From: a virus | Lineage: Duplodnaviria; Heunggongvirae; Uroviricota; Caudoviricetes | Reading direction: 5' to 3' (one strand) | Virus record (IMG/VR): IMGVR_UViG_2737471865_000001 | Span: 1-34,668 of that record | DNA length: 34,668 bases | Shown: piece after piece, positions 2,611-28,789 of the stretch | Position numbering within the stretch: the first letter of the stretch is position 1 | Layout: each line of letters starts with the position of its first letter | Notes under the pieces: generated by a model | What the model was told of the DNA's origin: nothing | Database searches by the model: none | What the model saw: the letters and a program-made list of their open reading frames with translations, nothing else | Translations under genes and position numbers: made by a program

Positions 2611-3318
2611 TTATGCCGCCTGTTTTAGTTCGTTAACTCTGATGTTCATTACCTGAACGCATTTAGCCTGCGCATCCTCATTGCCAGCCATTAATTGCCA
2701 GTCACGCTGATAACGCTCGATGAGTTTTTTCTTGTCAGTTTCTGTTGACGCATAATCGCTGAAGTCTTTCAGGATTTGTTCGCAGTCAACCGATGGAGAT
2801 TTCTGGTTGGTATTTTCTGGTGATGGTTTGTTATCTGATGCTGGGATTGCCCATCCCGGAAGCGATGGAGGGAGCCAGTAAAATCCTGTTCCATCCTTCA
2901 GTTTTGCCCTGTGCCACCCCTGCTTTTTATCGAGAGATGTTTGTGCGAAACCTTCCTCAAGGTTATACAGATACCGACCGATTCCCCACTGAACGGCAGC
3001 GCGCTTCATTGCACCGGAACGACCACCTTTGACGGCTTCTACCTGCGTGTTTTCAGCAGCATCCCATTTGGTTACCCATTCGGAATCAATCTTTATTGAT
3101 ATGCCGCATTCAACGCCGCCGTTGTTGGGAATATCGCGGTATTCATTGCGCCATCCTGCTTTGCCGCAAACATCGTCCAGGCGCTTCATGATTGCCCGGT
3201 TCGTGACATAAGCCAGCACCATAGCCCACACCTTGCCATCGCGTGTTTTACCGCTTTGCTGTATTCGCCATTCGATATCTTCAGGGCTGAATGGCTCATC
3301 GAATTTGTTCAAATCCAT
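2611..3318 (-). CDS. single-strand annealing recombinase, Rad52-like N-terminal domain with P22 Erf-like C-terminal tail
   Basis: N-terminal region has the Rad52/Sak-like motif KRAAVQWGIGRYLYN. The C-terminal ~60 aa (ILKDFSDYASTETDKKKLIERYQRDWQLMAGNEDAQAKCVQVMNIRVNELKQAA) closely resembles the C-terminus of P22 Erf as I recall it. Located next to ssb. Confidence 0.7.
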   Translation of the reverse strand: MDLNKFDEPFSPEDIEWRIQQSGKTRDGKVWAMVLAYVTNRAIMKRLDDVCGKAGWRNEYRDIPNNGGVECGISIKIDSEWVTKWDAAENTQVEAVKGGRSGAMKRAAVQWGIGRYLYNLEEGFAQTSLDKKQGWHRAKLKDGTGFYWLPPSLPGWAIPASDNKPSPENTNQKSPSVDCEQILKDFSDYASTETDKKKLIERYQRDWQLMAGNEDAQAKCVQVMNIRVNELKQAA

Positions 3319-5847: not shown

Positions 5848-5876
5848 AATTTAAGACTTCTTAATTTATTGGTCAA
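5848..5876 (-). promoter_or_regulatory. PL promoter with overlapping OL operator
   Basis: On the minus strand: TTGACC, 17-nt spacer, TAAATT. Overlaps the operator-like palindrome ATTTAAGACTTCTTAAT, which resembles the OR sites. Confidence 0.6.
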
Positions 5877-5940
5877 GTGCATTTTTGAAGAAAACTTAAT
5901 TTTATGGGCGTGAATTTAGTTTGTCTTTGATTTTTAACGG

Positions 5941-5966: not shown

Positions 5967-6617
5967 TTAAGGAAGGTTTGCTAGCTTGGCATCAACGACA
6001 ACGCCAATGATTTTACAGTTCCCATTGATTTCAATCATTGGGTATTGTGGATTGAGTGGTTTCAGGAATTTTCTACCGGCATCAATAACTAACTTTTTGA
6101 ATGTCGCCTCGTTTTCTCCTTCAAGTTTGGCGACTACCAGCTTTCCATTACGTGGTTCGACTTCTGGGTCGACGAGAATAATCATCCCCTCAGGAATACT
6201 CAGTCCTGCCGGGGCAGTCATTGAATCGCCTTTAACGTCGAGCCAAAAAGAGTCTTCAGAACAATCTACCGTTGTGTCGTACCAGTTATCTATTGCACGC
6301 CTATGATATGGCTCTACAGCTTCCATCCAACATCCTGCGCTTACCCAACTAATTAGAGGATACGAACCTCTTGGATCATGCCTGCTGTGATAGGCAATGT
6401 TTGAAAGACTATCCTCTCCTTTCAACAGGTAATCAGGGGAGCACTGCAAAGCCTTGGCTAAGGCCAATAGGTTTTCGCCATTGGGCTCAGTTTCAGATCG
6501 CTCCCATTGGGAAATAGCAACATTAGACACGCCAACCATCTTGCCAAGGGCAGCCTGCCTAATCTTGAGTTCTTTTCTGCGAGCGCGAATACGCTCACCC
6601 ATCAGTTGTGTATTCAT
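5967..6617 (-). CDS. c2: prophage repressor C2 (CI-type; HTH plus LexA-like S24 peptidase domain)
   Basis: 216 aa: N-terminal HTH (QAALGKMVGVSNVAISQWER) and C-terminal autocleavage domain (GDSM...VVAKL). Essentially matches P22 C2 as I recall it. Confidence 0.93.
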   Translation of the reverse strand: MNTQLMGERIRARRKELKIRQAALGKMVGVSNVAISQWERSETEPNGENLLALAKALQCSPDYLLKGEDSLSNIAYHSRHDPRGSYPLISWVSAGCWMEAVEPYHRRAIDNWYDTTVDCSEDSFWLDVKGDSMTAPAGLSIPEGMIILVDPEVEPRNGKLVVAKLEGENEATFKKLVIDAGRKFLKPLNPQYPMIEINGNCKIIGVVVDAKLANLP

Positions 6618-14508: not shown

Positions 14509-14693
14509 ACGCCACAATTCAAACGATACCAGAGCTTCTTATCCAGACACGAGGCAATCAGACCGAAGTGGCGAGGATGCTTTCCTGCGCAAGAGGAACA
14601 GTGCTCAAGTACAACCGAGACAGCAAAGGCGAGCGTCATGTAATAGTTAACGGCGTCCTGATGGTCAAACAGGGCAAGAGGGGAAGACGATGA
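14505..14693 (+). CDS. ninH: NinH-like small DNA-binding protein
   Basis: 62 aa with TIPELLIQTRGNQTEVARMLSCARGTVLKY, resembling lambda NinH (Fis-like HTH). Confidence 0.75.
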   Translation: MNATIQTIPELLIQTRGNQTEVARMLSCARGTVLKYNRDSKGERHVIVNGVLMVKQGKRGRR

Positions 14694-15178
14694 GCATAAG
14701 AGAACTAAACCTCACCAAAGAGCAGCACGATTGGCTGAATGGCTGGCTTGAACTGTGGGGAGCATGGGTTTATTCAGGTCGTCTTGAAAAGCGCATGAGC
14801 AGCGTAATAGCGAAGTTCATGGAGAGCGTAGAGCCGGGAAGAGTTATGACAAGGCCGATGTGCAATGATGATGATGGAATGTTGATTTCTCAGGTCGTCG
14901 ATTCCGTCATGTACATTGACAAGAAAGCCTTTGGCATCCTCCTCAGCTACTACGCCCACGGTTCTTCCAAGCACGCCATTGCATCTTACTATCATCGCGT
15001 CGCAAGACCTCGCAAGATGTTATGCCGGGGCGGCGGGCGCATTCAAAAACCATCGCTCGCAACCTGTCGTCGGGAAGTTGACGAAATCCTCAATGCCTCG
15101 TTGTTTATGATTTACCCGGTTCTGGATAGTGCGTTTAAAAACCGGAAACGTGTAGAGAAAATTAAACATGTAGCGTAG
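14690..15178 (+). CDS. Q: late-gene antiterminator Q (non-lambda type, probably phage 21/82 family)
   Basis: Called mainly from position: last gene of the nin region, directly upstream of a strong -35 TTGACA and the lysis cassette. 162 aa, not lambda Q-like in sequence; the N gene and nut sites are phi21-type. Confidence 0.55.
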   Translation: MSIRELNLTKEQHDWLNGWLELWGAWVYSGRLEKRMSSVIAKFMESVEPGRVMTRPMCNDDDGMLISQVVDSVMYIDKKAFGILLSYYAHGSSKHAIASYYHRVARPRKMLCRGGGRIQKPSLATCRREVDEILNASLFMIYPVLDSAFKNRKRVEKIKHVA

Positions 15179-15334
15179 AACGTGTTGACATCATTGAGCA
15201 AATGAGCAACACTATTCGCATAAGCTGCCGTTAGTGACTCTTAAGTTGCAACGGTGGCTTTTTTTGTTTGCACAACAGGTAAGAGCATTCTCCTTTATGG
15301 GGCTTGGCTTAAATGCACCGAGTGCTCTTATCGT

Positions 15335-15464
15335 TGTGGTGAAGCTCAATGGCGAGCTAGCAGATAGGCGACAGTGAAAATACTAGTCATGTAGCTGACC
15401 GCCGCGCGTACTGCAATCGGCAGCGCACCGATGGAAGCCGGTTCGATTCCGGCCGCCACAACCC
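15335..15464 (+). ncRNA. tRNA-like element (non-canonical; possibly a degenerate or interrupted tRNA)
   Basis: Canonical T-arm GCCGG-TTCGATT-CCGGC (15437..15453) followed by CGCCACA, which can pair with TGTGGTG at 15335..15341. A D-arm-like GCTC-aatggc-GAGC at 15344..15357 and a 5-bp stem with 7-nt loop at 15416..15432. Total span ~130 nt, with ~58 nt between the D-arm and the anticodon-like arm; the loop lacks U33. Confidence 0.25.
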
Positions 15465-15553
15465 AAACTGAGCCGTAGCCACTGGCTATCCTGAATTCAT
15501 CAGTGATAGTTACGCTGCGGCCTTCTACACATGACCTTCGTGAAAGCGGGTGA

Positions 15554-15586
15554 CAGGAGGTCGCGCTAACAACCTCCTGCCGTTTT
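15554..15586 (+). terminator. hairpin plus short T-run upstream of the lysis genes
   Basis: Stem CAGGAGGT / ACCTCCTG (8 bp, 10-nt loop) followed by CCGTTTTG. Confidence 0.4.
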
Positions 15587-15706
15587 GCCCGTGCATATCG
15601 GTCACGAACAAATCTGATTACTAAACACAGTAGCCTGGATTTGTTCTATCAGTAATCGACCTTATTCCTAATTAAATAGAGCAAATCCCCTTATTGGGGG
15701 TAAGAC

Positions 15707-16030
15707 ATGAAGATGCCAGAAAAACATGACCTGTTAGCCGCCATTCTCGCGGCAAAGGAACAAGGCATCGGGGCAATCCTTGCGTTTGCAATGGCGTACC
15801 TTCGCGGCAGATATGATGGCGGTGCGTTTACAAAAACAGTAATCGACGCAACGATGTGCGCCATTATCGCCTGGTTCATTCGTGACCTTCTCGACTTCGC
15901 CGGACTAAGTAGCAATCTCGCTTATATAACGAGCGTGTTCATCGGCTACATCGGTACTGACTCGATTGGTTCGCTTATCAAACGCTTCGCTGCTAAAAAA
16001 GCCGGAGTAGAAGATGGTGGAAATCAATAA
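15707..16030 (+). CDS. S: holin S (lambda class I holin)
   Basis: 107 aa, [36 protein letters not shown]... with dual-start MKM and three TM segments; essentially lambda S. Confidence 0.96.
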
Positions 16031-16490
16031 TCAACGTAAGGCGTTCCTCGATATGCTGGCGTGGTCAGAGGGAACAGATAACGGACGTCAAAAAACCAGA
16101 AATCATGGTTATGACGTCATTGTAGGCGGAGAGCTATTCACTGATTACTCCGATCACCCTCGCAAACTTGTCACGCTAAACCCAAAACTCAAATCAACAG
16201 CCGCCGGACGTTACCAGCTTCTTTCCCGTTGGTGGGATGCCTATCGTAAGCAGCTTGGACTGAAAGACTTCTCTCCGAAAAGCCAGGACGCTGTGGCATT
16301 GCAACAGATTAAAGAGCGTGGCGCTTTACCGATGATTGATCGCGGTGATATTCGTCAGGCTATCGACCGTTGCAGCAATATCTGGGCTTCACTGCCGGGG
16401 GCTGGTTATGGTCAGTTCGAGCATAAGGCTGACAGCCTGATTGCAAAATTCAAAGAAGCTGGCGGAACGGTCAGAGAGATTGAGGTATGA
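16014..16490 (+). CDS. R: endolysin R (lambda-type lytic transglycosylase)
   Basis: 158 aa [49 protein letters not shown]... matching lambda R; start overlaps the end of S. Confidence 0.95.
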
Positions 16491-16945
16491 GCAGAGTCAC
16501 CGCGATTATCTCCGCTCTGATTATCTGCATCGTCGTCTGTCTGTCGTGGGCGGTCAATCATTACCGTGATAACGCCATTACCTACAAAGCCCAGCGCGAC
16601 AAAAATGTCAGAGAACTGAAGCTGGCGAACGCGGCAATTACTGACATGCAGAAGCGTCAACGTGATGTAGCAGAACTCGACGCCAGATACACAAAGGAGC
16701 TTGCTGATGCTAACGCGACTATCGAAAGTCTCCGTGCTGATGTTTCTGCTGGTCGTAAGCGCCTGCAAGTCGCCGCCACCTGTGCAAAGTCAAAGACCGG
16801 AGCCAGCGGCATGGGCGATGGAGAAAGCCCAAGACTTACAGCAGATGCTGAACTCAATTATTACCGTCTCCGAAGTGGAATCGACAGGATAACCGCGCAG
16901 GTTAACTACCTGCAGGAGTACATCAGGACGCAATGCCTTCGATGA
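16487..16945 (+). CDS. Rz: i-spanin Rz
   Basis: 152 aa with N-terminal TM helix and coiled-coil periplasmic domain; start overlaps the R stop. Confidence 0.9.
16701..16892 (+). CDS. Rz1: o-spanin Rz1 (lipoprotein embedded in the +1 frame of Rz)
   Basis: Lipobox LVVSAC followed by a Pro-rich mature peptide; entirely nested in Rz in a different frame. Confidence 0.8.
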
Positions 16946-17119
16946 TAGCGATAATTTTACTCATCATCCTTCACATCTGGCTCTGTAGACAGGGTGGTGA
17001 TCACTTCTGGAGTGAATCCAGATTAAACATCTCATTGCTGATGCTTGATATTGAGCATCAGGCGCGCGGTAAAGGGCTGCGTTGAGATAAGAGCCAGTCA
17101 TCACAAACACCAGGATTTA

Positions 17120-17143
17120 GCCTCGCATTCGCGGGGCTTTTTT
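17120..17143 (+). terminator. rho-independent terminator downstream of the lysis cassette
   Basis: Hairpin GCCTCGC-attc-GCGGGGC (one G-U pair) followed by TTTTTT. Confidence 0.7.
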
Positions 17144-17290
17144 ACATCTGCAGTAAACCGCGCATCGCAGCGCGTAACAATCCCGAGTCTTTCAGAAAGC
17201 TGAGCCTGAGAACTGCCGTATATGGTGGCGACCATCTCGGGGCGGCTTTTCTGTGCGAACAGGCTCATCTTTCTAAAAGGTAAAGACGCT

Positions 17291-17779
17291 ATGAACCAAT
17301 TAGAAGAAAAGCTTCAAAGAATGATTTCCTTATACAAGGAAGATAGCTGCCAAAAAGTTCCTGAAAACATCGCAGAGTTAATGGAATTGGCAAGTGAATT
17401 TTCTGGCATGCTTAAGTCGTCAGGTGTTCGGTCAGCGTTCTTTGTTGAAATGCTGATGCACGGCGGACTTATGGCAACAATGAGACGTGTAATGGAAGAC
17501 CAGAGAAAAGAACCTCCTCAGGTATACGTTTTGTCATCGAAGAAAACTGGGCTAACCAAAATTGGGTATTCATCCAACATTCCACAACGCATCAAATCGC
17601 TTGGCAACTCTGGACCAGACTGCTTGAAGCTTGAGTGCCTGATCCCTGGTGGAAGAGAAACTGAAAACATGCTTCATCGCAAATTTGCCGCAAAGAGAAA
17701 GCACGGTGAATGGTTCGCCCTGTCCAAGGATGACATTGAGGGATTGAAATCTGTAGCGATTACTTCCGATGGCTATTAA
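17291..17779 (+). CDS. T5orf172-domain (GIY-YIG-superfamily-like) protein with helical N-terminal extension
   Basis: C-terminal region VYVLSSKKTGLTKIGYSSNIPQRIKSLGN...ENMLHRKFAAKRKHGEWFAL matches the T5orf172/MUG113 signature (VYVL..G..KIG...N...R...L, then LH..F...R..GEWF). Start taken at ATG 17291 (MNQLEEK...). Confidence 0.6.
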   Translation: MNQLEEKLQRMISLYKEDSCQKVPENIAELMELASEFSGMLKSSGVRSAFFVEMLMHGGLMATMRRVMEDQRKEPPQVYVLSSKKTGLTKIGYSSNIPQRIKSLGNSGPDCLKLECLIPGGRETENMLHRKFAAKRKHGEWFALSKDDIEGLKSVAITSDGY

Positions 17780-17817
17780 TGCTTGTTTAGAGCAATTTTC
17801 ATAACAACTCTTCATTA

Positions 17818-17848
17818 CAAAGCCCATCTACTGGTGGGCTTGATAATG
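17818..17848 (+). repeat. conserved hairpin element, copy A (AAGCCCA...TGGGCTTGATAATG)
   Basis: Stem AAGCCCA / TGGGCTT followed by TGATAATG, immediately after the T5orf172 gene; a near-identical element recurs at 18726..18758. Confidence 0.5.
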
Positions 17849-18097
17849 AAACCGTGATTTACATCCCCACAATCCGGGTATGTAAAAGATAGTTCAGGCG
17901 AGAACAGATTTAACTAAATCTGTGCACCACCAGTTGCGGCAGTACAGCGAAACAACCCAAGCCAGTAAGTGGGGAAATAACACTGGCAGCCACTGAAAGA
18001 TGAACCTCCTGCCTGATGGCAAAAAAGATTCTTTGTGGTGGCGGACTGATGGAAAGACATCCGCTGAATCGATGATGAACAAGTGGAAGAGGTTGCG

Positions 18098-18268
18098 ATG
18101 GTTTCCGTGAACAAAGATCCGAAGGAAGGCGTTGAATACATCACTGGTGCTGATGGTGTGAAAAGGCCAATGGCTTATTACAAAGCGGCCGAAGAGAGGG
18201 CAAGAATGGAAAATCCCCCTAAATGCGGATCATTTTTCGACATGCTGGACCTTCAATGGAAGTTGTGA
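18098..18268 (+). CDS. hypothetical small protein (56 aa)
   Basis: ATG at 18098 preceded by GGAAGAGG; followed by a terminator. Confidence 0.4.
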   Translation: MVSVNKDPKEGVEYITGADGVKRPMAYYKAAEERARMENPPKCGSFFDMLDLQWKL

Positions 18269-18278
18269 ACAACTAACA

Positions 18279-18300
18279 GGTCGCTCAGGCGGCCTTTTTT
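18279..18300 (+). terminator. rho-independent terminator
   Basis: Stem GGTCGC / GCGGCC (one G-U pair), loop TCAG, then TTTTTT. Confidence 0.55.
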
Positions 18301-18345
18301 ATCGCCATCACAAAAACATCTTTAACAACCAACAAGGTCATAATT

Positions 18346-18717
18346 ATGAACGACCAGCAAATCGAAAAAGAAATCGTTGAGAAAGGCAAAACGGCACCGC
18401 GCGTTACGCCAGACCATATCGAAGGAATTATTGCTCAGGAGGCATATTTCACAGCAGAGGATGGTGCCTTTGGCAAAGCCATAAAAGCTAAACATACTGG
18501 CGGAGAGGTAAACTACCAGCCGCACGAATCACTTTCTCTGCTGACGTTCTGCGTCCTGGTGCTGCGCAACGGCTTCACCGTCACCGGAGAGAGTGCCTGT
18601 GCAAGTCCGGAAAATTTTGATGCAGAAATTGGTCGGAAGATTGCCCGGCAGAATGCTGTAAACAAAATCTGGATGCTCGAAGGTTACTTGCTGAAGCAGA
18701 AGCTAAGCGAACAGTAG
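18346..18717 (+). CDS. hypothetical phage protein (123 aa)
   Basis: ORF with a good start context; may belong to a small phage protein family found upstream of terminase genes, but I cannot place it confidently. Confidence 0.5.
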   Translation: MNDQQIEKEIVEKGKTAPRVTPDHIEGIIAQEAYFTAEDGAFGKAIKAKHTGGEVNYQPHESLSLLTFCVLVLRNGFTVTGESACASPENFDAEIGRKIARQNAVNKIWMLEGYLLKQKLSEQ

Positions 18718-18725
18718 TTATTACA

Positions 18726-18758
18726 AAAGCCATTCCCTACAGAGTGGCTTTGATAATG
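18726..18758 (+). repeat. conserved hairpin element, copy B (AAAGCC...GGCTTTGATAATG)
   Basis: Stem AAAGCC / GGCTTT followed by TGATAATG, immediately after the 123-aa gene; same flanking ATTACAAAGCC and TTGATAATG as copy A. Confidence 0.5.
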
Positions 18759-18820
18759 GCTTATACCCTACACGGGATAACTTAACTGATATCCCTTTTA
18801 ACGGATAAACGGAGCCAACA

Positions 18821-19063
18821 ATGGCAGAGATTATTCCCATGACTGAAGAACAGAAATTCCAGTTAGAGATTTACAAACTGGTCATGAACCAGAACGCAGC
18901 CGCAGAAGAAGCATTTCAATTCATTGGCACTGACGAACTGAAGCTTGAGCTATTCAAAATTCACTTCCAGTCAGGCGGCGCTAATTCGGATATCACGACC
19001 CGCACTATCGAAGCGGTGCGTAAATCGAAGGAAGCGTTAGACCTGTTCACCACCGGAGCATAA
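18821..19063 (+). CDS. hypothetical protein (80 aa)
   Basis: ORF immediately upstream of the terminase small subunit; no recognisable motif. Confidence 0.45.
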   Translation: MAEIIPMTEEQKFQLEIYKLVMNQNAAAEEAFQFIGTDELKLELFKIHFQSGGANSDITTRTIEAVRKSKEALDLFTTGA

Positions 19064-19065
19064 AC

Positions 19066-19506
19066 ATGGCGCGCCCAACAAAGTATCAAGAGGCGTATGC
19101 CGAACAGGCACGCAAACTGTGCTTGCTGGGCTATACAGACGCAGAACTTGCTGATTTCTTCGAAGTCAGTGAGTCAACTATTAACAAGTGGAAGCTTGAT
19201 TATCCTAAGTTTTCGGAGTCCATAAAAAAGGGTAAGGCCGTCGCTGATGCAGAAGTTAGTGACCGTCTTTATCAACGCGCTATGGGCTTCGTGGCTCCAG
19301 ACATCGATATTCGTGTTATTGAAAACAGAATTGTCGAAACTCCGCTTGAGAAGTATTACCCGCCTGATACAACCGCTGCCATCTTCTGGCTTAAGAATCG
19401 ACAGAAGGATAAATGGCGCGACAAGGTTGATCACGAGCTAACAGGCAAAGACGGCGGCGCAATCCAGATTGAAACATCACCGATGAGCACTCTATTCGGA
19501 AAATGA
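19066..19506 (+). CDS. terminase small subunit
   Basis: 146 aa with HTH-like GYTDAELADFFEVSESTINKWK; stop overlaps the TerL start as ATGA. Confidence 0.75.
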   Translation: MARPTKYQEAYAEQARKLCLLGYTDAELADFFEVSESTINKWKLDYPKFSESIKKGKAVADAEVSDRLYQRAMGFVAPDIDIRVIENRIVETPLEKYYPPDTTAAIFWLKNRQKDKWRDKVDHELTGKDGGAIQIETSPMSTLFGK

Positions 19507-20918
19507 CCTCGATTAATCCTATCTTTGAACCGTTCATTGAGGCGCATCGCTACAAAGTCGCCAAAGGCGGTCGAGGTAGCGGTAAATCATGGGCAATTGC
19601 GAGGCTGCTTGTTGAGGCGGCACGTCGGCAGCCTGTGCGTATTCTTTGCGCTCGTGAACTGCAAAACAGTATCAGCGATTCGGTAATCCGGTTGCTTGAA
19701 GACACCATCGAGCGGGAAGGGTATTCGGCCGAGTTTGAAATTCAGCGTTCCATGATTCGTCATCTCGGAACGAATGCTGAGTTCATGTTCTACGGCATCA
19801 AAAACAACCCGACGAAGATTAAATCGCTAGAAGGTATTGATATCTGCTGGGTGGAGGAAGCGGAAGCGGTAACGAAGGAATCATGGGATATCCTGATACC
19901 AACCATCCGCAAGCCGTTTTCCGAAATATGGGTGAGCTTTAACCCTAAGAACATCCTCGACGATACCTATCAGCGATTCGTCGTAAATCCTCCCGATGAT
20001 ATTTGCCTGCTGACGGTGAACTACACCGACAACCCGCATTTTCCTGAAGTTCTCCGTCTGGAGATGGAAGAGTGTAAACGCAGAAACCCGACACTGTATC
20101 GTCACATCTGGCTTGGTGAGCCAGTAAGCGCAAGTGATATGGCAATCATCAAACGTGAATGGCTTGAAGCCGCAACCGATGCGCACAAGAAACTCGGATG
20201 GAAAGCGAAAGGCGCTGTTGTCTCTGCGCATGACCCATCAGATACAGGGCCAGATGCTAAAGGTTATGCATCGCGTCACGGTTCGGTTGTTAAGCGCATT
20301 GCCGAAGGCCTGCTGATGGACATCAACGAGGGTGCTGACTGGGCTACTTCGCTGGCGATTGAAGACGGCTCTGACCACTACCTGTGGGATGGTGATGGTG
20401 TTGGTGCCGGGCTACGCAGACAGACAACGGAAGCGTTCTCCGGCAAGAAAATCACCGCCACGATGTTCAAGGGCAGCGAATCGCCATTCGATGAAGATGC
20501 GCCATATCAGGCCGGAGCATGGGCTGATGAAGTTGTACAGGGCGACAATGTTCGCACTATTGGCGATGTATTCCGCAATAAGCGAGCGCAATTCTATTAC
20601 GCGCTGGCTGACAGGCTGTATCTGACATATCGGGCGGTTGTTCACGGTGAGTATGCAGACCCAGACGACATGCTGAGTTTCGACAAAGAAGCGATAGGCG
20701 AGAAGATGCTGGAGAAGCTGTTTGCAGAACTGACGCAGATTCAGCGCAAATTCAATAATAACGGGAAGCTGGAGCTTATGACTAAGGTCGAAATGAAGCA
20801 GAAGCTCGGTATTCCATCTCCTAACCTGGCTGATGCGCTGATGATGTGTATGCATTGCCCGGAGTCGGCTGCGCAACCCGACTATTCCAGTTACTCAATT
20901 CCTTGTGGTGTAGGTTGA
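19503..20918 (+). CDS. terminase large subunit
   Basis: 471 aa; Walker A KGGRGSGKS, Walker B-like ICWVEEAE, C-terminal nuclease region. Confidence 0.93.
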   Translation: MTSINPIFEPFIEAHRYKVAKGGRGSGKSWAIARLLVEAARRQPVRILCARELQNSISDSVIRLLEDTIEREGYSAEFEIQRSMIRHLGTNAEFMFYGIKNNPTKIKSLEGIDICWVEEAEAVTKESWDILIPTIRKPFSEIWVSFNPKNILDDTYQRFVVNPPDDICLLTVNYTDNPHFPEVLRLEMEECKRRNPTLYRHIWLGEPVSASDMAIIKREWLEAATDAHKKLGWKAKGAVVSAHDPSDTGPDAKGYASRHGSVVKRIAEGLLMDINEGADWATSLAIEDGSDHYLWDGDGVGAGLRRQTTEAFSGKKITATMFKGSESPFDEDAPYQAGAWADEVVQGDNVRTIGDVFRNKRAQFYYALADRLYLTYRAVVHGEYADPDDMLSFDKEAIGEKMLEKLFAELTQIQRKFNNNGKLELMTKVEMKQKLGIPSPNLADALMMCMHCPESAAQPDYSSYSIPCGVG

Positions 20919-20919
20919 T

Positions 20920-23118
20920 ATGGCAGAAAAAAAGATGACTGACTGGCATCGCAAGGTGCTGTGCAACTTTGATAATGCCTGGTCAGCAACGCAGGATATG
21001 CGTGAGCAGATTATTGAGGCTCAACGTTTCGTCCGGGTATCCGGCGCACAGTGGGAAGGCAGTACAAACGCTGGTTACTCATTTGATGAAGGCAGGTTTG
21101 AGCATTATCCGCGTTTTGAACTGAATAAGATTGCCCGTGAATGTGATCGCATCATTGGCGAGTATCGACAGAATCGCATCAGCGTTAAATTCAGGCCGAA
21201 GGACGATAAGGCATCGGAAGCGTTAGCCGAAAAGATGAACGGCAAATTCCGCGCTGACTATCAGGAAACATCCGGTGGCGAAGCGTGTGATAACGCATTT
21301 GATGATGCTGTAACGGGCGGATTCGGTTGTTTCCGCATGTGTGCCGATTACGAAGATGAAATGGATCCGAGTAACGAGCAGCGACGCATCAGTCTTCTTC
21401 CTGTTTACGACCCAGCGACATGCGTCTTCTTTGATCAGGACAGCAAGCAATATGACCGCTCTGATGCTATGTGGGCTATGGAAATGTTCTCCATGACGCC
21501 CAAAGCGTTCGAGGCTGAATACCCTGATTCCATCGCGGCAAGTCTTTCTCGTGATGACACTGGCACTCAATATGACTGGTCAACTCCTGATGCTATCTAT
21601 GTTGGTCGCTACTACGAAGTTCGCATAGAGAAGGTGAAGCTCACAGCATGGCGTAACCCTGTTAGCGGAGAAACGGCAATCTATGATGAAGAGCAAATCA
21701 AAGATATTGTCGACGAGCTGACCGATGGTGCATTCGAACTGATTGGTGAGCGGACAGTGAAGAAACGCCGAGTTTATTGCGGTCTTCTGTCTGGCGCTGA
21801 ATGGCTGGAAGAACCGAAGCGTATTCCGGGCGAACATATTCCTCTCATCCCGGTATATGGGCGTCGTTCATTTGTTGATAATCAGGAGCGAATCGAAGGC
21901 CACGCAGCAAAAGCGATGGATGCACAGCGTCTTGAGAACCTGATGGTTTCCATGATTGCAGATAACGCTACTCAGGCTGGCGGTGATGGCATTCCTGTAG
22001 TTGATGTTGACATGATTCCTGGTCCTCTTGCCACTCATTGGGCGGAGCGCAACAAAAAGCGCCCGGCGTTCCTGCCGATGGTCAGTCTGAAAAACAAAAA
22101 CGGAGATATTACTGCGCAGGCTCAGGTCAGCAGTTATACACCTCCGACACAAATGCCTCCAGCTCTTGCCGGGCTATTGCAGTACACCGGAACGGCTATT
22201 CAGCAAATTACAGGTGCGTCGCAGCTTGAGAACATGCCGAGCAACGTCGCTACCGATACCGTTGATAGCATCTTTAATCGGATGGACACGCAGTCCTATA
22301 TCTACATGGACAACATGGCTAAATCCATGCGCCGCGCTGGCGTCGTGTGGCTTTCTATGGCGCGTGAAGTCTATGGCAGCGATACGCCAATGCGCATCGT
22401 TAATGAGGACGGCAGCGATGACGTGGCGCTGATGACTGGTGAAGTGGTTGACCGTCAGACAGGGCGGGTTATCGCGCTTAACGACCTTTCGCAGGGTAAC
22501 TATGAAGTGACTGTCGATGTCGGTCAGTCGTTCGCTACTCGCCGTGATGCAACGGTTAAGTCGTTACTTTCCATGCTGGCACTTATCCCACCAGGAACGC
22601 CGAAGCACGACCTTGTATCGTCGATGATTCTCGACAATATGGACGGCGAAGGGATGGACGACCTTAAAGAATACAACCGCAATCAGTTGCTTCTGTCTGG
22701 AGTTATCAAGCCGAGAACGCCAGAAGAACAGCAGATGGTTGAGCAGGCGAAACAACAACAGGCCAGTCAGCCAGATCCGGCTATGGTTGCTGCGCAAGGT
22801 CAGCTTCTTGCTGGTCAGGCTGAATTGCAGAAAGCGCAGAACGAACAGGCAGCCATTCAGGTTAAAGCATTCCAGGCACAGACTGATGCTCAGGTTGCAG
22901 CAGCAAACGTTGTGAAAATCCTCGCATCTGCCGATAGCCAGCAGAAATCTGATATCCGCGAGGCTCTGAAACTGCTCGGACAGTTCCAGCAACAGCAAGG
23001 AGACAATGCCCGTGCTGATGCAGAGCTTGTCCTGAAAAGTCAGGCACAGGGTCATGCGCAGCGCATGGACATCAGCAGCATCCTGCAAAAATCAACTCAG
23101 CAACAACCACAGCAGTAA
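20920..23118 (+). CDS. portal protein (P22 gp1-like)
   Basis: 732 aa; ERTVKKRRVY and the C-terminal Gln-rich barrel region (PEEQQMVEQAKQQQASQPDPAMVAAQGQLLAGQAELQKAQN) parallel P22 portal from memory. Confidence 0.93.
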   Translation: MAEKKMTDWHRKVLCNFDNAWSATQDMREQIIEAQRFVRVSGAQWEGSTNAGYSFDEGRFEHYPRFELNKIARECDRIIGEYRQNRISVKFRPKDDKASEALAEKMNGKFRADYQETSGGEACDNAFDDAVTGGFGCFRMCADYEDEMDPSNEQRRISLLPVYDPATCVFFDQDSKQYDRSDAMWAMEMFSMTPKAFEAEYPDSIAASLSRDDTGTQYDWSTPDAIYVGRYYEVRIEKVKLTAWRNPVSGETAIYDEEQIKDIVDELTDGAFELIGERTVKKRRVYCGLLSGAEWLEEPKRIPGEHIPLIPVYGRRSFVDNQERIEGHAAKAMDAQRLENLMVSMIADNATQAGGDGIPVVDVDMIPGPLATHWAERNKKRPAFLPMVSLKNKNGDITAQAQVSSYTPPTQMPPALAGLLQYTGTAIQQITGASQLENMPSNVATDTVDSIFNRMDTQSYIYMDNMAKSMRRAGVVWLSMAREVYGSDTPMRIVNEDGSDDVALMTGEVVDRQTGRVIALNDLSQGNYEVTVDVGQSFATRRDATVKSLLSMLALIPPGTPKHDLVSSMILDNMDGEGMDDLKEYNRNQLLLSGVIKPRTPEEQQMVEQAKQQQASQPDPAMVAAQGQLLAGQAELQKAQNEQAAIQVKAFQAQTDAQVAAANVVKILASADSQQKSDIREALKLLGQFQQQQGDNARADAELVLKSQAQGHAQRMDISSILQKSTQQQPQQ

Positions 23119-28150: not shown

Positions 28151-28789
28151 ATGGCAGACCCGTCACTTAATAAGCCTGTCGTGGTTCAGGCTACACGCAT
28201 TGATGCATCTATTCTCCCTCGCAACATATTCAGTCAGTCTTACCTTCTGTATGTCATAAATCAGGGTACTGATGTTGGCTCCATTGCAGAAAAGGCAAAT
28301 CAGGCAGGAGGCGGTGCTTATGATGCGCAGGTCAGAAATGATGAGCAGGATGTAATTCTTGATGAGCACGAAAAAAGAATTGCAAAAACAGAAGAGGATA
28401 TTTCAGGAATAAAAGTAAAGCTTCTTGAAATAGAGAATGATGTTAATGGTCTGAAAATAAAAGTTCAGGATATCGACGGTAAGGTATCAGAGATAATCGT
28501 TGATTATGTTTCACTCAGCAGAGCAGGAACTCAAACTCTTGCCTCATCCCTTAACGTATCAGGAAGTTATTCTGTTAACGGTACAAAAGTTGTTGGCGCT
28601 CGCCAGACTGGATGGACCGCGGCAACAGGTACGGCGAATAAAGGCGTATTCAATGCTGACCTGACATTCACCGTTAGCGATACTTACACGCAATCTGAAA
28701 TCCAGACTATAGCCAATGCTCTAATTGCTGAGCGTCGGCGCACTAAGGCTTTGGAAGACGCCTTGCGTGCACATGGGTTGATTGATTAA
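28151..28789 (+). CDS. tail needle protein (P22 gp26-like)
   Basis: 212 aa; N-terminus [25 protein letters not shown] and C-terminus [22 protein letters not shown]...[13 protein letters not shown] match P22 gp26 from memory; the central coiled coil is shorter. Confidence 0.9.

Follow-up and report, generated by a model that had tools for sequence, protein, structure and literature searches.

Hairpins processed by ribonuclease III (RNase III) are already known as a kind in phages. The Escherichia coli enzyme recognizes an 11-bp helix that has U-A and U.G pairs in its distal box (Pertzev and Nicholson 2006, PMC1540722) and a proximal box in which the first position (pb1) is G-C, pb2 is A-U or U-A (G-C and C-G being strongly inhibitory), pb3 is A-U and pb4 is A-U or U-A, or a U.C mismatch in the T7 site R1.1 (PMC1540722). 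Internal loops confine cutting to one strand, and the hairpin left at the 3' end protects the upstream RNA (PMC1540722). Two RNase III sites of the T7 early region, R0.5 and R1.1, have been put to use in engineering, as insulators at mRNA junctions (PMC3643576). Here, we describe two hairpins in the IMG/VR virus record IMGVR_UViG_2737471865_000001, a stretch of 34,668 nucleotides (nt) that was analysed as a whole (hereafter the window) and is a P22-like lambdoid prophage. These hairpins, located between the lysis and terminase genes, belong to a family of conserved RNA stem-loops that is widespread in lambda-like prophages, where it occupies the late operon and has escaped annotation, and it is this set that is new. 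By analogy with T7, we consider it probable that they are intercistronic host RNase III processing/stabilization sites of the R1/R1.1 type, situated in the Q-antiterminated late transcript of lambdoid (P22-, HK97- and lambda-like) phages. The features shown below on which this proposal is based are a conserved sense-strand fold, RNase III boxes, similarity to the T7 sites, intercistronic placement and co-location with mosaic joints.

A family of stem-loops in the late operon

An earlier reading of the window, made from the sequence only, had pointed to two copies of a hairpin element of about 35 bp. Both are really present, the first exactly where it had been placed (17814-17848), while for the second the proposed end (18758) was right and the start was off by two nucleotides (18720 rather than 18718). 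The proposed length was too short, since folding of the RNA extends the elements to 17811-17850 (hairpin 1) and 18716-18761 (hairpin 2). Hairpin 1 consists of a 7-bp lower stem (UUCAUUA/UAAUGAA), a CA/GA internal loop, a 9-bp upper stem (AAGCCCAUC/GGUGGGCUU) and the loop UACU, with a folding energy of -22.2 kcal/mol (z = -6.7). Hairpin 2 has an 8-bp lower stem that includes two U.G pairs (AGUUAUUA/UAAUGGCU), the same type of internal loop, a 10-bp upper stem (AAAGCCAUUC/GAGUGGCUUU) and the 6-nt loop CCUACA (-20.6 kcal/mol, z = -4.7). Common to both are the symmetric 2x2 internal loop CA/GA and the lower stem CAUUA/UAAUG. The copies differ in their loops, as had been noticed, and also at two stem pairs where both changes are compensatory (G-C to A-U and C-G to G-C). 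None of 200 shuffles equalled either fold, and the minus strands fold less well (z = -3.8 for hairpin 1 and -1.6 for hairpin 2). The gapped pattern by which the elements had originally been defined has a chance expectation of 0.00 in the window. A covariance model search of the whole window returned only the two hairpins, the next match scoring 12 bits, and an Rfam 15 search of positions 15000-21000 (E <= 10) gave no match overlapping either of them.

Each hairpin follows a stop codon, as originally described: hairpin 2 overlaps the TAG (18715-18717) of an open reading frame (ORF) of the gp49/66 family, and hairpin 1 starts 31 nt past the TAA (17777-17779) of the T5orf172 ORF. In relatives, 2-3 nt usually separate the stop codon from the hairpin, and 14-17 nt the hairpin from the start codon that comes next. 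The relatives comprise 80 viral loci fetched with DUF2560 as an anchor, plus those of Sf6, HK106 and epsilon34, and these 83 loci contain about 130 copies, which bears out the suggestion that the element recurs. Every one of the 83 loci has a copy that ends 59 nt before the DUF2560 start codon, and most have a second copy 200-650 nt upstream. P22 has one copy (40307-40351) and HK620 two, copies are also found in Sf6, epsilon34 and HK106, and O157:H7 prophages with lambda-like or HK97-like terminases carry them as well. With rare exceptions, the copies sit in the gap that separates the spanin genes from the small terminase gene. All are sense to the late operon, and the phages that carry them have hosts in Escherichia, Salmonella, Shigella, Klebsiella, Atlantibacter and Serratia. 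Hairpin B, the type to which hairpin 2 belongs, is present in 1449 of 5426 complete E. coli genomes (27%), and hairpin A, the type of hairpin 1, in 347; a strict triloop pattern was found in two species only in a scan of the genome collection. No annotated feature describes the hairpin element at the E. coli matches, the hairpins are unannotated in the GenBank records of P22, Sf6 and HK620, and no description of them was found in the epsilon34 paper, the phage L paper or full-text literature searches. Lambda has no copy, and neither do the K-12 cryptic prophages DLP12 and Qin, which makes the published K-12 RNase III maps uninformative here.

Comparison of the copies indicates that it is the structure that has been maintained. 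A scan by structure only (5-bp lower stem, CA, a stem of at least 7 bp, GA) recovered 103 elements in 84 sources, all on the plus strand and all of this hairpin family. In an alignment of 24 distinct variants, 98.5% of the cells are paired (30-49% in slid controls), with double-sided, compensatory changes in seven of the 14 pairs, such as the lower-stem series ATTA/TAAT, ATTG/TAAT and ATTG/CAAT. There are 49 distinct cores in all, with 19 different 5' arms, and a pattern in which all 14 variable stem positions were replaced by N recovered 14 loci, 13 of them complementary (the exception being locus L090). The lower stem and internal loop, CAUUA-CA/GA-UAAUG, are nearly invariant in sequence across the family. 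As for the strand, all 124 copies in DUF2560-oriented loci are on the plus (sense) strand, the upper stems of the family contain 27 G.U pairs vs two A.C mismatches, and in most copies of type A the loop is a C(UACG)G tetraloop. It follows that the folded molecule is the sense strand, most simply the late mRNA. A function of the antisense strand was rejected, its fold being weaker and the G.U pairs turning into A.C in it.

Likeness to the RNase III sites of T7

The architecture of the family is that of an RNase III substrate in several respects. Two coaxial helices of 7-8 bp and 9-10 bp are separated by the 2x2 internal loop, the same layout as in the T7 sites R1, R0.3 and R18.5. A distal box is recognizable: stem position 8 is occupied by U.G in 41 of 49 cores, with a U-A pair beside it in the 10-bp types. 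The apex of hairpin 2 is a closing C-G followed by U-A and U.G, and that of hairpin 1 a closing C-G followed by U.G, as in T7 R1 and R0.3; the loop-closing pair is C-G in 37 of 44 cores. At the other end of the upper stem, hairpin 1 has a canonical proximal box (G-C, A-U, A-U and an A.G mismatch). Among the cores, pb2 is A-U in 44 of 49 and pb1 is G-C in 27 of 48, pb4 being the A.G mismatch of the CA/GA internal loop. The spacing agrees with an 11-bp helix: 10 bp plus pb4 are found in hairpin 2 and in 25 of 49 cores, and 9 bp plus pb4, as in T7 R1 and R0.3, in hairpin 1 and in 17 of 49, which gives 42 of 49 cores with 9-10 bp.

Hairpins built alike were found when the early intergenic regions of T7 were folded. 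R1 reads UAUCU-UA-CAGGUCAUC-UGCG-GGUGGCCUG-AAU-AGGUA, those of R0.3, R0.5 and R18.5 are similar, and R1.1 reads AAGGUCAUUC-GCAA-GAGUGGCCUU, followed by UAUGAUUG, its GCAA loop and distal box being confirmed by published work (PMC1540722). A covariance model built from lambdoid copies only was run on both strands of the whole T7 genome, and its top five matches include 3115-3134, 5861-5884, 36831-36852 and 1441-1465, which are the hairpins of R1, R1.1, R18.5 and R0.5, respectively. A descriptor derived from the lambdoid family has only three matches in T7, at 866-887 (R0.3), 3114-3135 (R1) and 5861-5884 (R1.1), and in controls it gave 0.28 matches in shuffled T7, none in lambda and three distinct non-family matches in 1.06 Mb of other sequence. 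Each T7 hairpin ends 3-4 nt before the position that we take to be its cleavage site, i.e. 890 (R0.3), 1468 (R0.5), 3138 (R1), 5887 (R1.1) and 36856 (R18.5), coordinates reportedly given by Dunn and Studier in 1983; the T7 GenBank records examined have no annotated RNase III site features.

The T7 and lambdoid elements share an intercistronic location in sense orientation within a polycistronic phage mRNA, a lower stem, internal loop, 9-10 bp upper stem and small loop, and an apical motif CAU(U)C-loop-G(A)GUG with the U.G wobble of the distal box above an A-U-rich base (the proximal box). The nearest counterpart of hairpin 1 is R1 and that of hairpin 2 is R1.1. They differ in the sequence of the lower stem and in the internal loop, which is ACUC/UAUGR (4x5) in most T7 sites and UA/AAU in R1 instead of the symmetric CA/GA. 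Moreover, the lambdoid elements are found in temperate phages, their transcript is made by the Q-modified host polymerase and their cleavage is predicted only. The likeness could have arisen either by common descent or by convergence on the rules of RNase III.

By analogy with the T7 sites, a mechanism can be outlined in which RNase III would bind the 9-10 bp upper stem via the U.G/U-A distal box near the loop and the A-U-rich proximal box at the base, and the CA/GA internal loop would confine the cut to one strand, approximately 3 nt 3' of the upper stem. The predicted cuts fall at ~17844/17845 in hairpin 1 and ~18754/18755 in hairpin 2. The upstream cistron would then keep a protective 3' hairpin and the downstream cistron would become a separate RNA, with the outcome that stability and translation of adjacent cassettes would be uncoupled. 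The sequence-only reading had proposed an RNA processing, stability or recombination signal at cassette boundaries, a broad either/or that is supported and can now be narrowed: an RNA-level signal is backed by the compensatory changes and the sense-strand G.U bias, and processing, with cleavage itself remaining a prediction, acquires specificity from the match to RNase III determinants and T7 sites.

A number of observations weigh against this assignment. The coaxial helices total 17-20 bp, slightly under the 22 bp, or two turns, of typical RNase III substrates. The proximal box of hairpin 2 (A-U, A-U, A-U, A.G) has a suboptimal A-U at pb1, pb3 is A-U in 24 cores and G-C, a departure from the optimum, in another 24, and type H deviates from the optimal box with C-G at pb2; judged by the counts at pb1 and pb3, some types of the family are thus suboptimal. 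With 10-15 bits, the covariance model scores low on T7, in a range that the lambda noise (14 bits) also reaches, which is why the T7 argument rests on the positions of the matches and not on their scores, and the cleavage coordinates used for T7 are assumed ones. Neither the orphan 5' arms of the hairpin found at cassette junctions (see below) nor the strict sequence conservation of the lower stem is explained by RNase III function alone.

The one experimental hint, which counts both for and against, comes from a study of small RNAs in P22 infection (2026), in which a 204-nt sense RNA named P22G was reported, with a called 3' boundary at ...GGUUAUUGCAGAGGCCAU (PMC13397905). Comparison with that report indicates that P22G covers the end of ORF201 and a conserved stretch, and that its called 3' boundary is inside the P22 copy of the hairpin. 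Window positions 17937-18060 are homologous to the body of P22G and are followed by other sequence, not by the hairpin. P22G would be in keeping with a 3' end set by the hairpin. Yet this is only suggestive because the boundary was assembled from 101-nt reads (PMC13397905), hence is imprecise, and because it falls short of the predicted cut (3 nt past the end of the upper stem) by ~18 nt, being within the 5' arm of that stem, an offset that also counts against processing by RNase III.

Should RNase III cut at these hairpins, the late operon of P22-like and other lambdoid phages would be a processed transcript rather than a single uninterrupted message, with processing sites (in the region studied) at the edges of accessory ('moron') slots. 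This would provide a rationale for the insertion of unrelated genes into an operon without disturbing their neighbours. About a quarter of E. coli genomes, as well as the model phages P22, Sf6 and HK620, would gain an RNA element in their annotation, and the family would offer synthetic biology a natural, sequence-diverse set of RNase III insulators.

Homology breaks at the hairpins and competing explanations

The 2-kb region that contains the hairpins matched 320 phage records, none of which covers 80% of it, and the 41 loci with a common left anchor display 21 gene architectures. Slot 1 is occupied by Rha, two T5orf172 types, KilA-N-like genes and others, slot 2 by gp66, other small ORFs or nothing. 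The idea that the hairpins mark cassette boundaries, which the sequence-only reading had proposed to check against mosaic breakpoints, is borne out by this comparison. When the flanks of hairpin A were compared two by two, 441 of 528 pairs lost homology no further than ~4 nt from its left edge. To its right, the break is at +7 nt in 339 of 861 pairs and somewhere from +1 to +9 in 464, and many E. coli matches to hairpin A span only 17813-17848. Sf6, which is without cassette 1 (the first moron), has its junction at the hairpin, GCCAGT being directly followed by hairpin A. The hairpins are conserved islands where inter-phage homology breaks. Since they are conserved islands amid unrelated flanks, they may also be where cassettes recombine: an element of ~45 nt that is near-identical across unrelated flanks would be a site at which different cassettes could be joined. 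As they coincide with mosaic joints, the hairpins offer a defined element of 45 nt at which the old 'linker/boundary sequence' hypothesis of modular phage evolution can be tested directly.

The joints have a characteristic anatomy. The anchor leads into CATYACAAA in each of the 41 anchored loci, and from there either into the rest of hairpin A or into a terminator and variable genes; in the latter case, a complete hairpin A mostly comes next, the remainder having a B or C copy before DUF2560. In this manner, copies of the hairpin 5' arm frame the cassettes as direct repeats of 9-11 nt, the joint being inside the hairpin. The window has this orphan-arm arrangement twice (17099-17107 and 18306-18314), the first arm forming with 17813-17821 the direct repeat that brackets cassette 1, and CATYACAAA occurs four times on the plus strand of the whole window and never on the minus strand. 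Chimeric hairpins exist as well. One (locus L063, 2899-2942) has the arm and loop of type A and the 3' flank of type C, resulting in an A.G mismatch; another (L029, 2899-2942) has hairpin A joined to the right flank of hairpin B; and in five loci (L036, L045, L049, L061 and L068) an orphan ATCA arm is joined to hairpin B, resulting in a C.A mismatch in the lower stem, an arrangement that equals that of the window minus the gp66 gene. Such chimeras are direct traces of crossovers within the element.

Short conserved sequences at transitions between homologous and non-homologous DNA are the hallmark of lambdoid 'boundary sequences' (bsq), and the hairpins display it. They resemble the bsq of HK620 and Sf6, and the linkers imagined by Susskind and Botstein, in being short, conserved among lambdoid phages and placed at homology transitions, but the annotation of the Sf6 region examined does not list them as bsq, its sole bsq feature (bsq7) being inside Rz and not a hairpin. 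Boundary sequences are reportedly treated in the HK620 paper. Hairpins without a U-tract 3' of late-operon genes are also represented by repetitive extragenic palindromic (REP) elements and by the stem-loop after the major capsid gene of lambda, HK97 and P22 (annotated in P22 as a stem_loop at 6102-6119), although these are simple stems that lack the conserved wobble, flanks and internal loop and do not recur where cassettes meet. The 'promoter-early stem-loops' (PeSL) of virulent T4-like phages are mobile regulatory cassettes that include an early promoter. They are said to recur, as hairpin-containing regulators, on either side of variable small genes in hyperplastic regions, and a part in modular shuffling has been proposed for them; unlike the lambdoid hairpins, they reportedly contain that early promoter and have no RNase III-like boxes. 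Finally, in integrons every gene cassette has an attC site at its 3' end, an imperfect hairpin with structure kept more than sequence and core repeats at the borders. The lambdoid element is much shorter (40-48 nt), and membership in the attC class was rejected, since its cores are CCATTAC ... GATAATGG, with no RYYYAAC/GTTRRRY, and since the wobble bias indicates that the sense and not the bottom strand folds. No integron-type integrase is evident among the neighbouring lysis, accessory and terminase genes, although no search aimed at IntI was made.

The likeness to attC raises the question of whether the hairpins could act as DNA, a single-stranded or cruciform hairpin being used by a structure-specific nuclease or recombinase to mobilize moron cassettes. 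This would account for the 5'-arm direct repeats around cassettes, present in every anchored locus and twice in the window, for the junctions and chimeras inside the hairpin (L063, L029 and the L036 group) and for the existence of both empty and filled sites; moreover, a conserved lower stem, an unpaired spacer and a variable upper stem are reminiscent of a folded attC, and T5orf172/GIY-YIG or HNH genes adjoin in some cases. Nevertheless, we find it highly improbable that this is what the hairpins are for: no recombinase co-occurs consistently, the neighbouring genes being variable, attC core sequences are absent, it is the sense strand that folds, often with a UNCG tetraloop (most type A copies) that is a feature of RNA stability, and the RNase III boxes would have to be a coincidence, while short conserved islands are expected to gather homologous crossovers without any dedicated machinery. 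A combined scheme, which we regard as rather unlikely, would make the hairpins the working 'linkers' of lambdoid mosaicism and a phage counterpart of attC, cassettes being exchanged by crossover within the arm and insulated by RNase III cleavage. Each cassette would be framed by an orphan 5' arm (CATYACAAA) to the left and, to the right, by a complete hairpin, and exchange, insertion or deletion would occur via hairpin-provoked template switching or a structure-specific nuclease or recombinase.

Among RNA-level alternatives, the most natural is an element that functions without RNase III, whether by blocking 3'-5' exonucleases, as REP elements or the stem-loops after major capsid genes do, by insulating the translation of one cistron from that of the next or by binding an RNA-binding protein of phage or host, a possibility that we think unlikely but would take seriously. 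In its favour, a conserved sense-strand fold occupies the space between a stop codon and the next ribosome-binding site, the P22G RNA ends at the hairpin, P22 already has an annotated stem-loop after gene 5, and the near-invariance of CAUUA-CA/GA-UAAUG, for which RNase III has no obvious need, could betray a sequence-specific binder. What a plain stabilizer does not need is the U.G at a fixed position, the A-U at pb2 and the fixed 9-10 bp of the upper stem, all of which are RNase III determinants, and it would leave the recovery of T7 RNase III sites by the family model unexplained. Termination or attenuation without a U-tract, closing moron transcripts for the unmodified RNA polymerase of the lysogen, would be in keeping with hairpins at the 3' ends of accessory genes, with the T8 run after the Serratia copy and with the canonical terminator directly before the hairpin in several loci. 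We hold it to be very remote, because a T-run is missing from the window copies and nearly all relatives, genuine T-run terminators are separately present in the region (17119-17138 and 18278-18295), and termination has no use for the conserved internal loop and wobble. The absence of a T-run had in fact been noticed at the outset; intrinsic termination was rejected in the window, where the post-stem sequences GAUAAUGAAACC and GAUAAUGGCUUA contain no U-tract and the terminator scan lists neither hairpin. The probability that the hairpins are a functionless, hitch-hiking relic repeat, palindromic by chance, is close to negligible: many copies are indeed close relatives, which makes identity alone weak evidence, but a relic would not be expected to have 19 stem variants with compensatory changes, nor to keep its geometry, orientation and placement across phages of the six enterobacterial genera listed above.

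Surrounding genes and minor observations

The features of the window around the two hairpins are listed in Table 1.

Table 1. Lysis, accessory and terminase features of the window, with the elements found between them
Feature	Position	Strand	Evidence or remarks
Holin	15707-16030		
Endolysin	16014-16490		
Rz/Rz1	16487-16945		
Orphan 5' arm CATCACAAA	17099..17107	+	Left junction of first cassette (terminator + T5orf172 gene)
Canonical intrinsic terminator, stem + T6	17119..17138	+	Terminator scan; just 3' of orphan arm, left end of cassette 1
Cassette 1 gene, T5orf172/MUG113 (GIY-YIG-like) protein	17291..17779	+	Pfam PF13455 6.7e-15, PF10544 2.9e-10
Hairpin 1 (type A)	17811..17850	+	RNA folding, inverted repeat, covariance model 58.9 bits, descriptor match 17820-17841
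Conserved stretch between hairpins, without obvious gene	17937..18060	+	Conservation in relatives
Second canonical intrinsic terminator	18278..18295	+	Terminator scan; 3' of small ORF 18083-18268
Orphan 5' arm CATCACAAA	18306..18314	+	Left junction of gp49/66 cassette; repeat partner 18720-18729
Cassette 2 gene, N4 gp49 / Sf6 gp66 family protein	18346..18717	+	Pfam PF13876 8.6e-35
Hairpin 2 (type B)	18716..18761	+	RNA folding, covariance model 58.3 bits, descriptor match 18726-18751
DUF2560 gene	18821..19063	+	Pfam PF10834 1.1e-43
Small terminase	19066-19506		Followed by large terminase, portal

A terminator is annotated in the HK106 and epsilon34 records at the place equivalent to the first one of the window. 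Two small ORFs, at 18000-18110 and 18083-18268, overlap between the hairpins. The first ~20 codons of the former are kept in Sf6, epsilon34 and HK106, the remainder being different in each phage, and the epsilon34 and HK106 versions run into the hairpin and have their stop codon in its loop. The epsilon34 record notes a similarity of this small ORF to the N-terminus of ST64T orf118, and it looks like a truncated or chimeric gene remnant. At 17928-17991 there is a weak match to Rfam Proteo-phage-1 (18.7 bits against a gathering score of 42, E = 7.4).

Some members of the family are unusual. One (locus L102, 7611-7650) lies outside the gap between lysis and terminase genes, between major-tail-protein-like and tail-chaperone-like genes, with a stem GAGGGGC/GCCCCUC and a 10-nt loop. 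Another, on the minus strand of a Serratia sp. metagenome-assembled genome (L127, 1805-1843), has a stem GGUGGCG/CGCCACC, is 3' of a gp49/66-like gene and precedes the T8 run, and could double as an intrinsic terminator. In P22 (L125), the annotated 'orf25' (40329-40406) starts at an ATG in the hairpin loop and is probably not a real gene.

Upstream of the hairpins, a partial Rfam tmRNA (transfer-messenger RNA) match was found at 15406-15464. It scores 20.2 bits (E = 3.4e-5), the gathering score being 47, and lies in the interval from a Q-like ORF (14690-15178) to the holin gene. A transfer RNA or tmRNA identity was rejected, since ARAGORN found neither in the window, and the match is possibly a late-promoter leader with a terminator hairpin. 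Just 5' of the start of the T5orf172 ORF, an inverted repeat with 20-nt arms (17189-17208 and 17260-17279, 90% complementary, with a spacer of 51 nt) may be a regulatory structure or operator of the moron. Lastly, the mRNA of lambda cIII is a known RNase III target, and in P22 (L125, NC_002371) a hairpin GAAGCGCUC-GCAU-GGGCGUUUC on the minus strand (28288-28309), in the 5' part of gene c3 and sense to the early-left operon, fits the RNase III-like descriptor.

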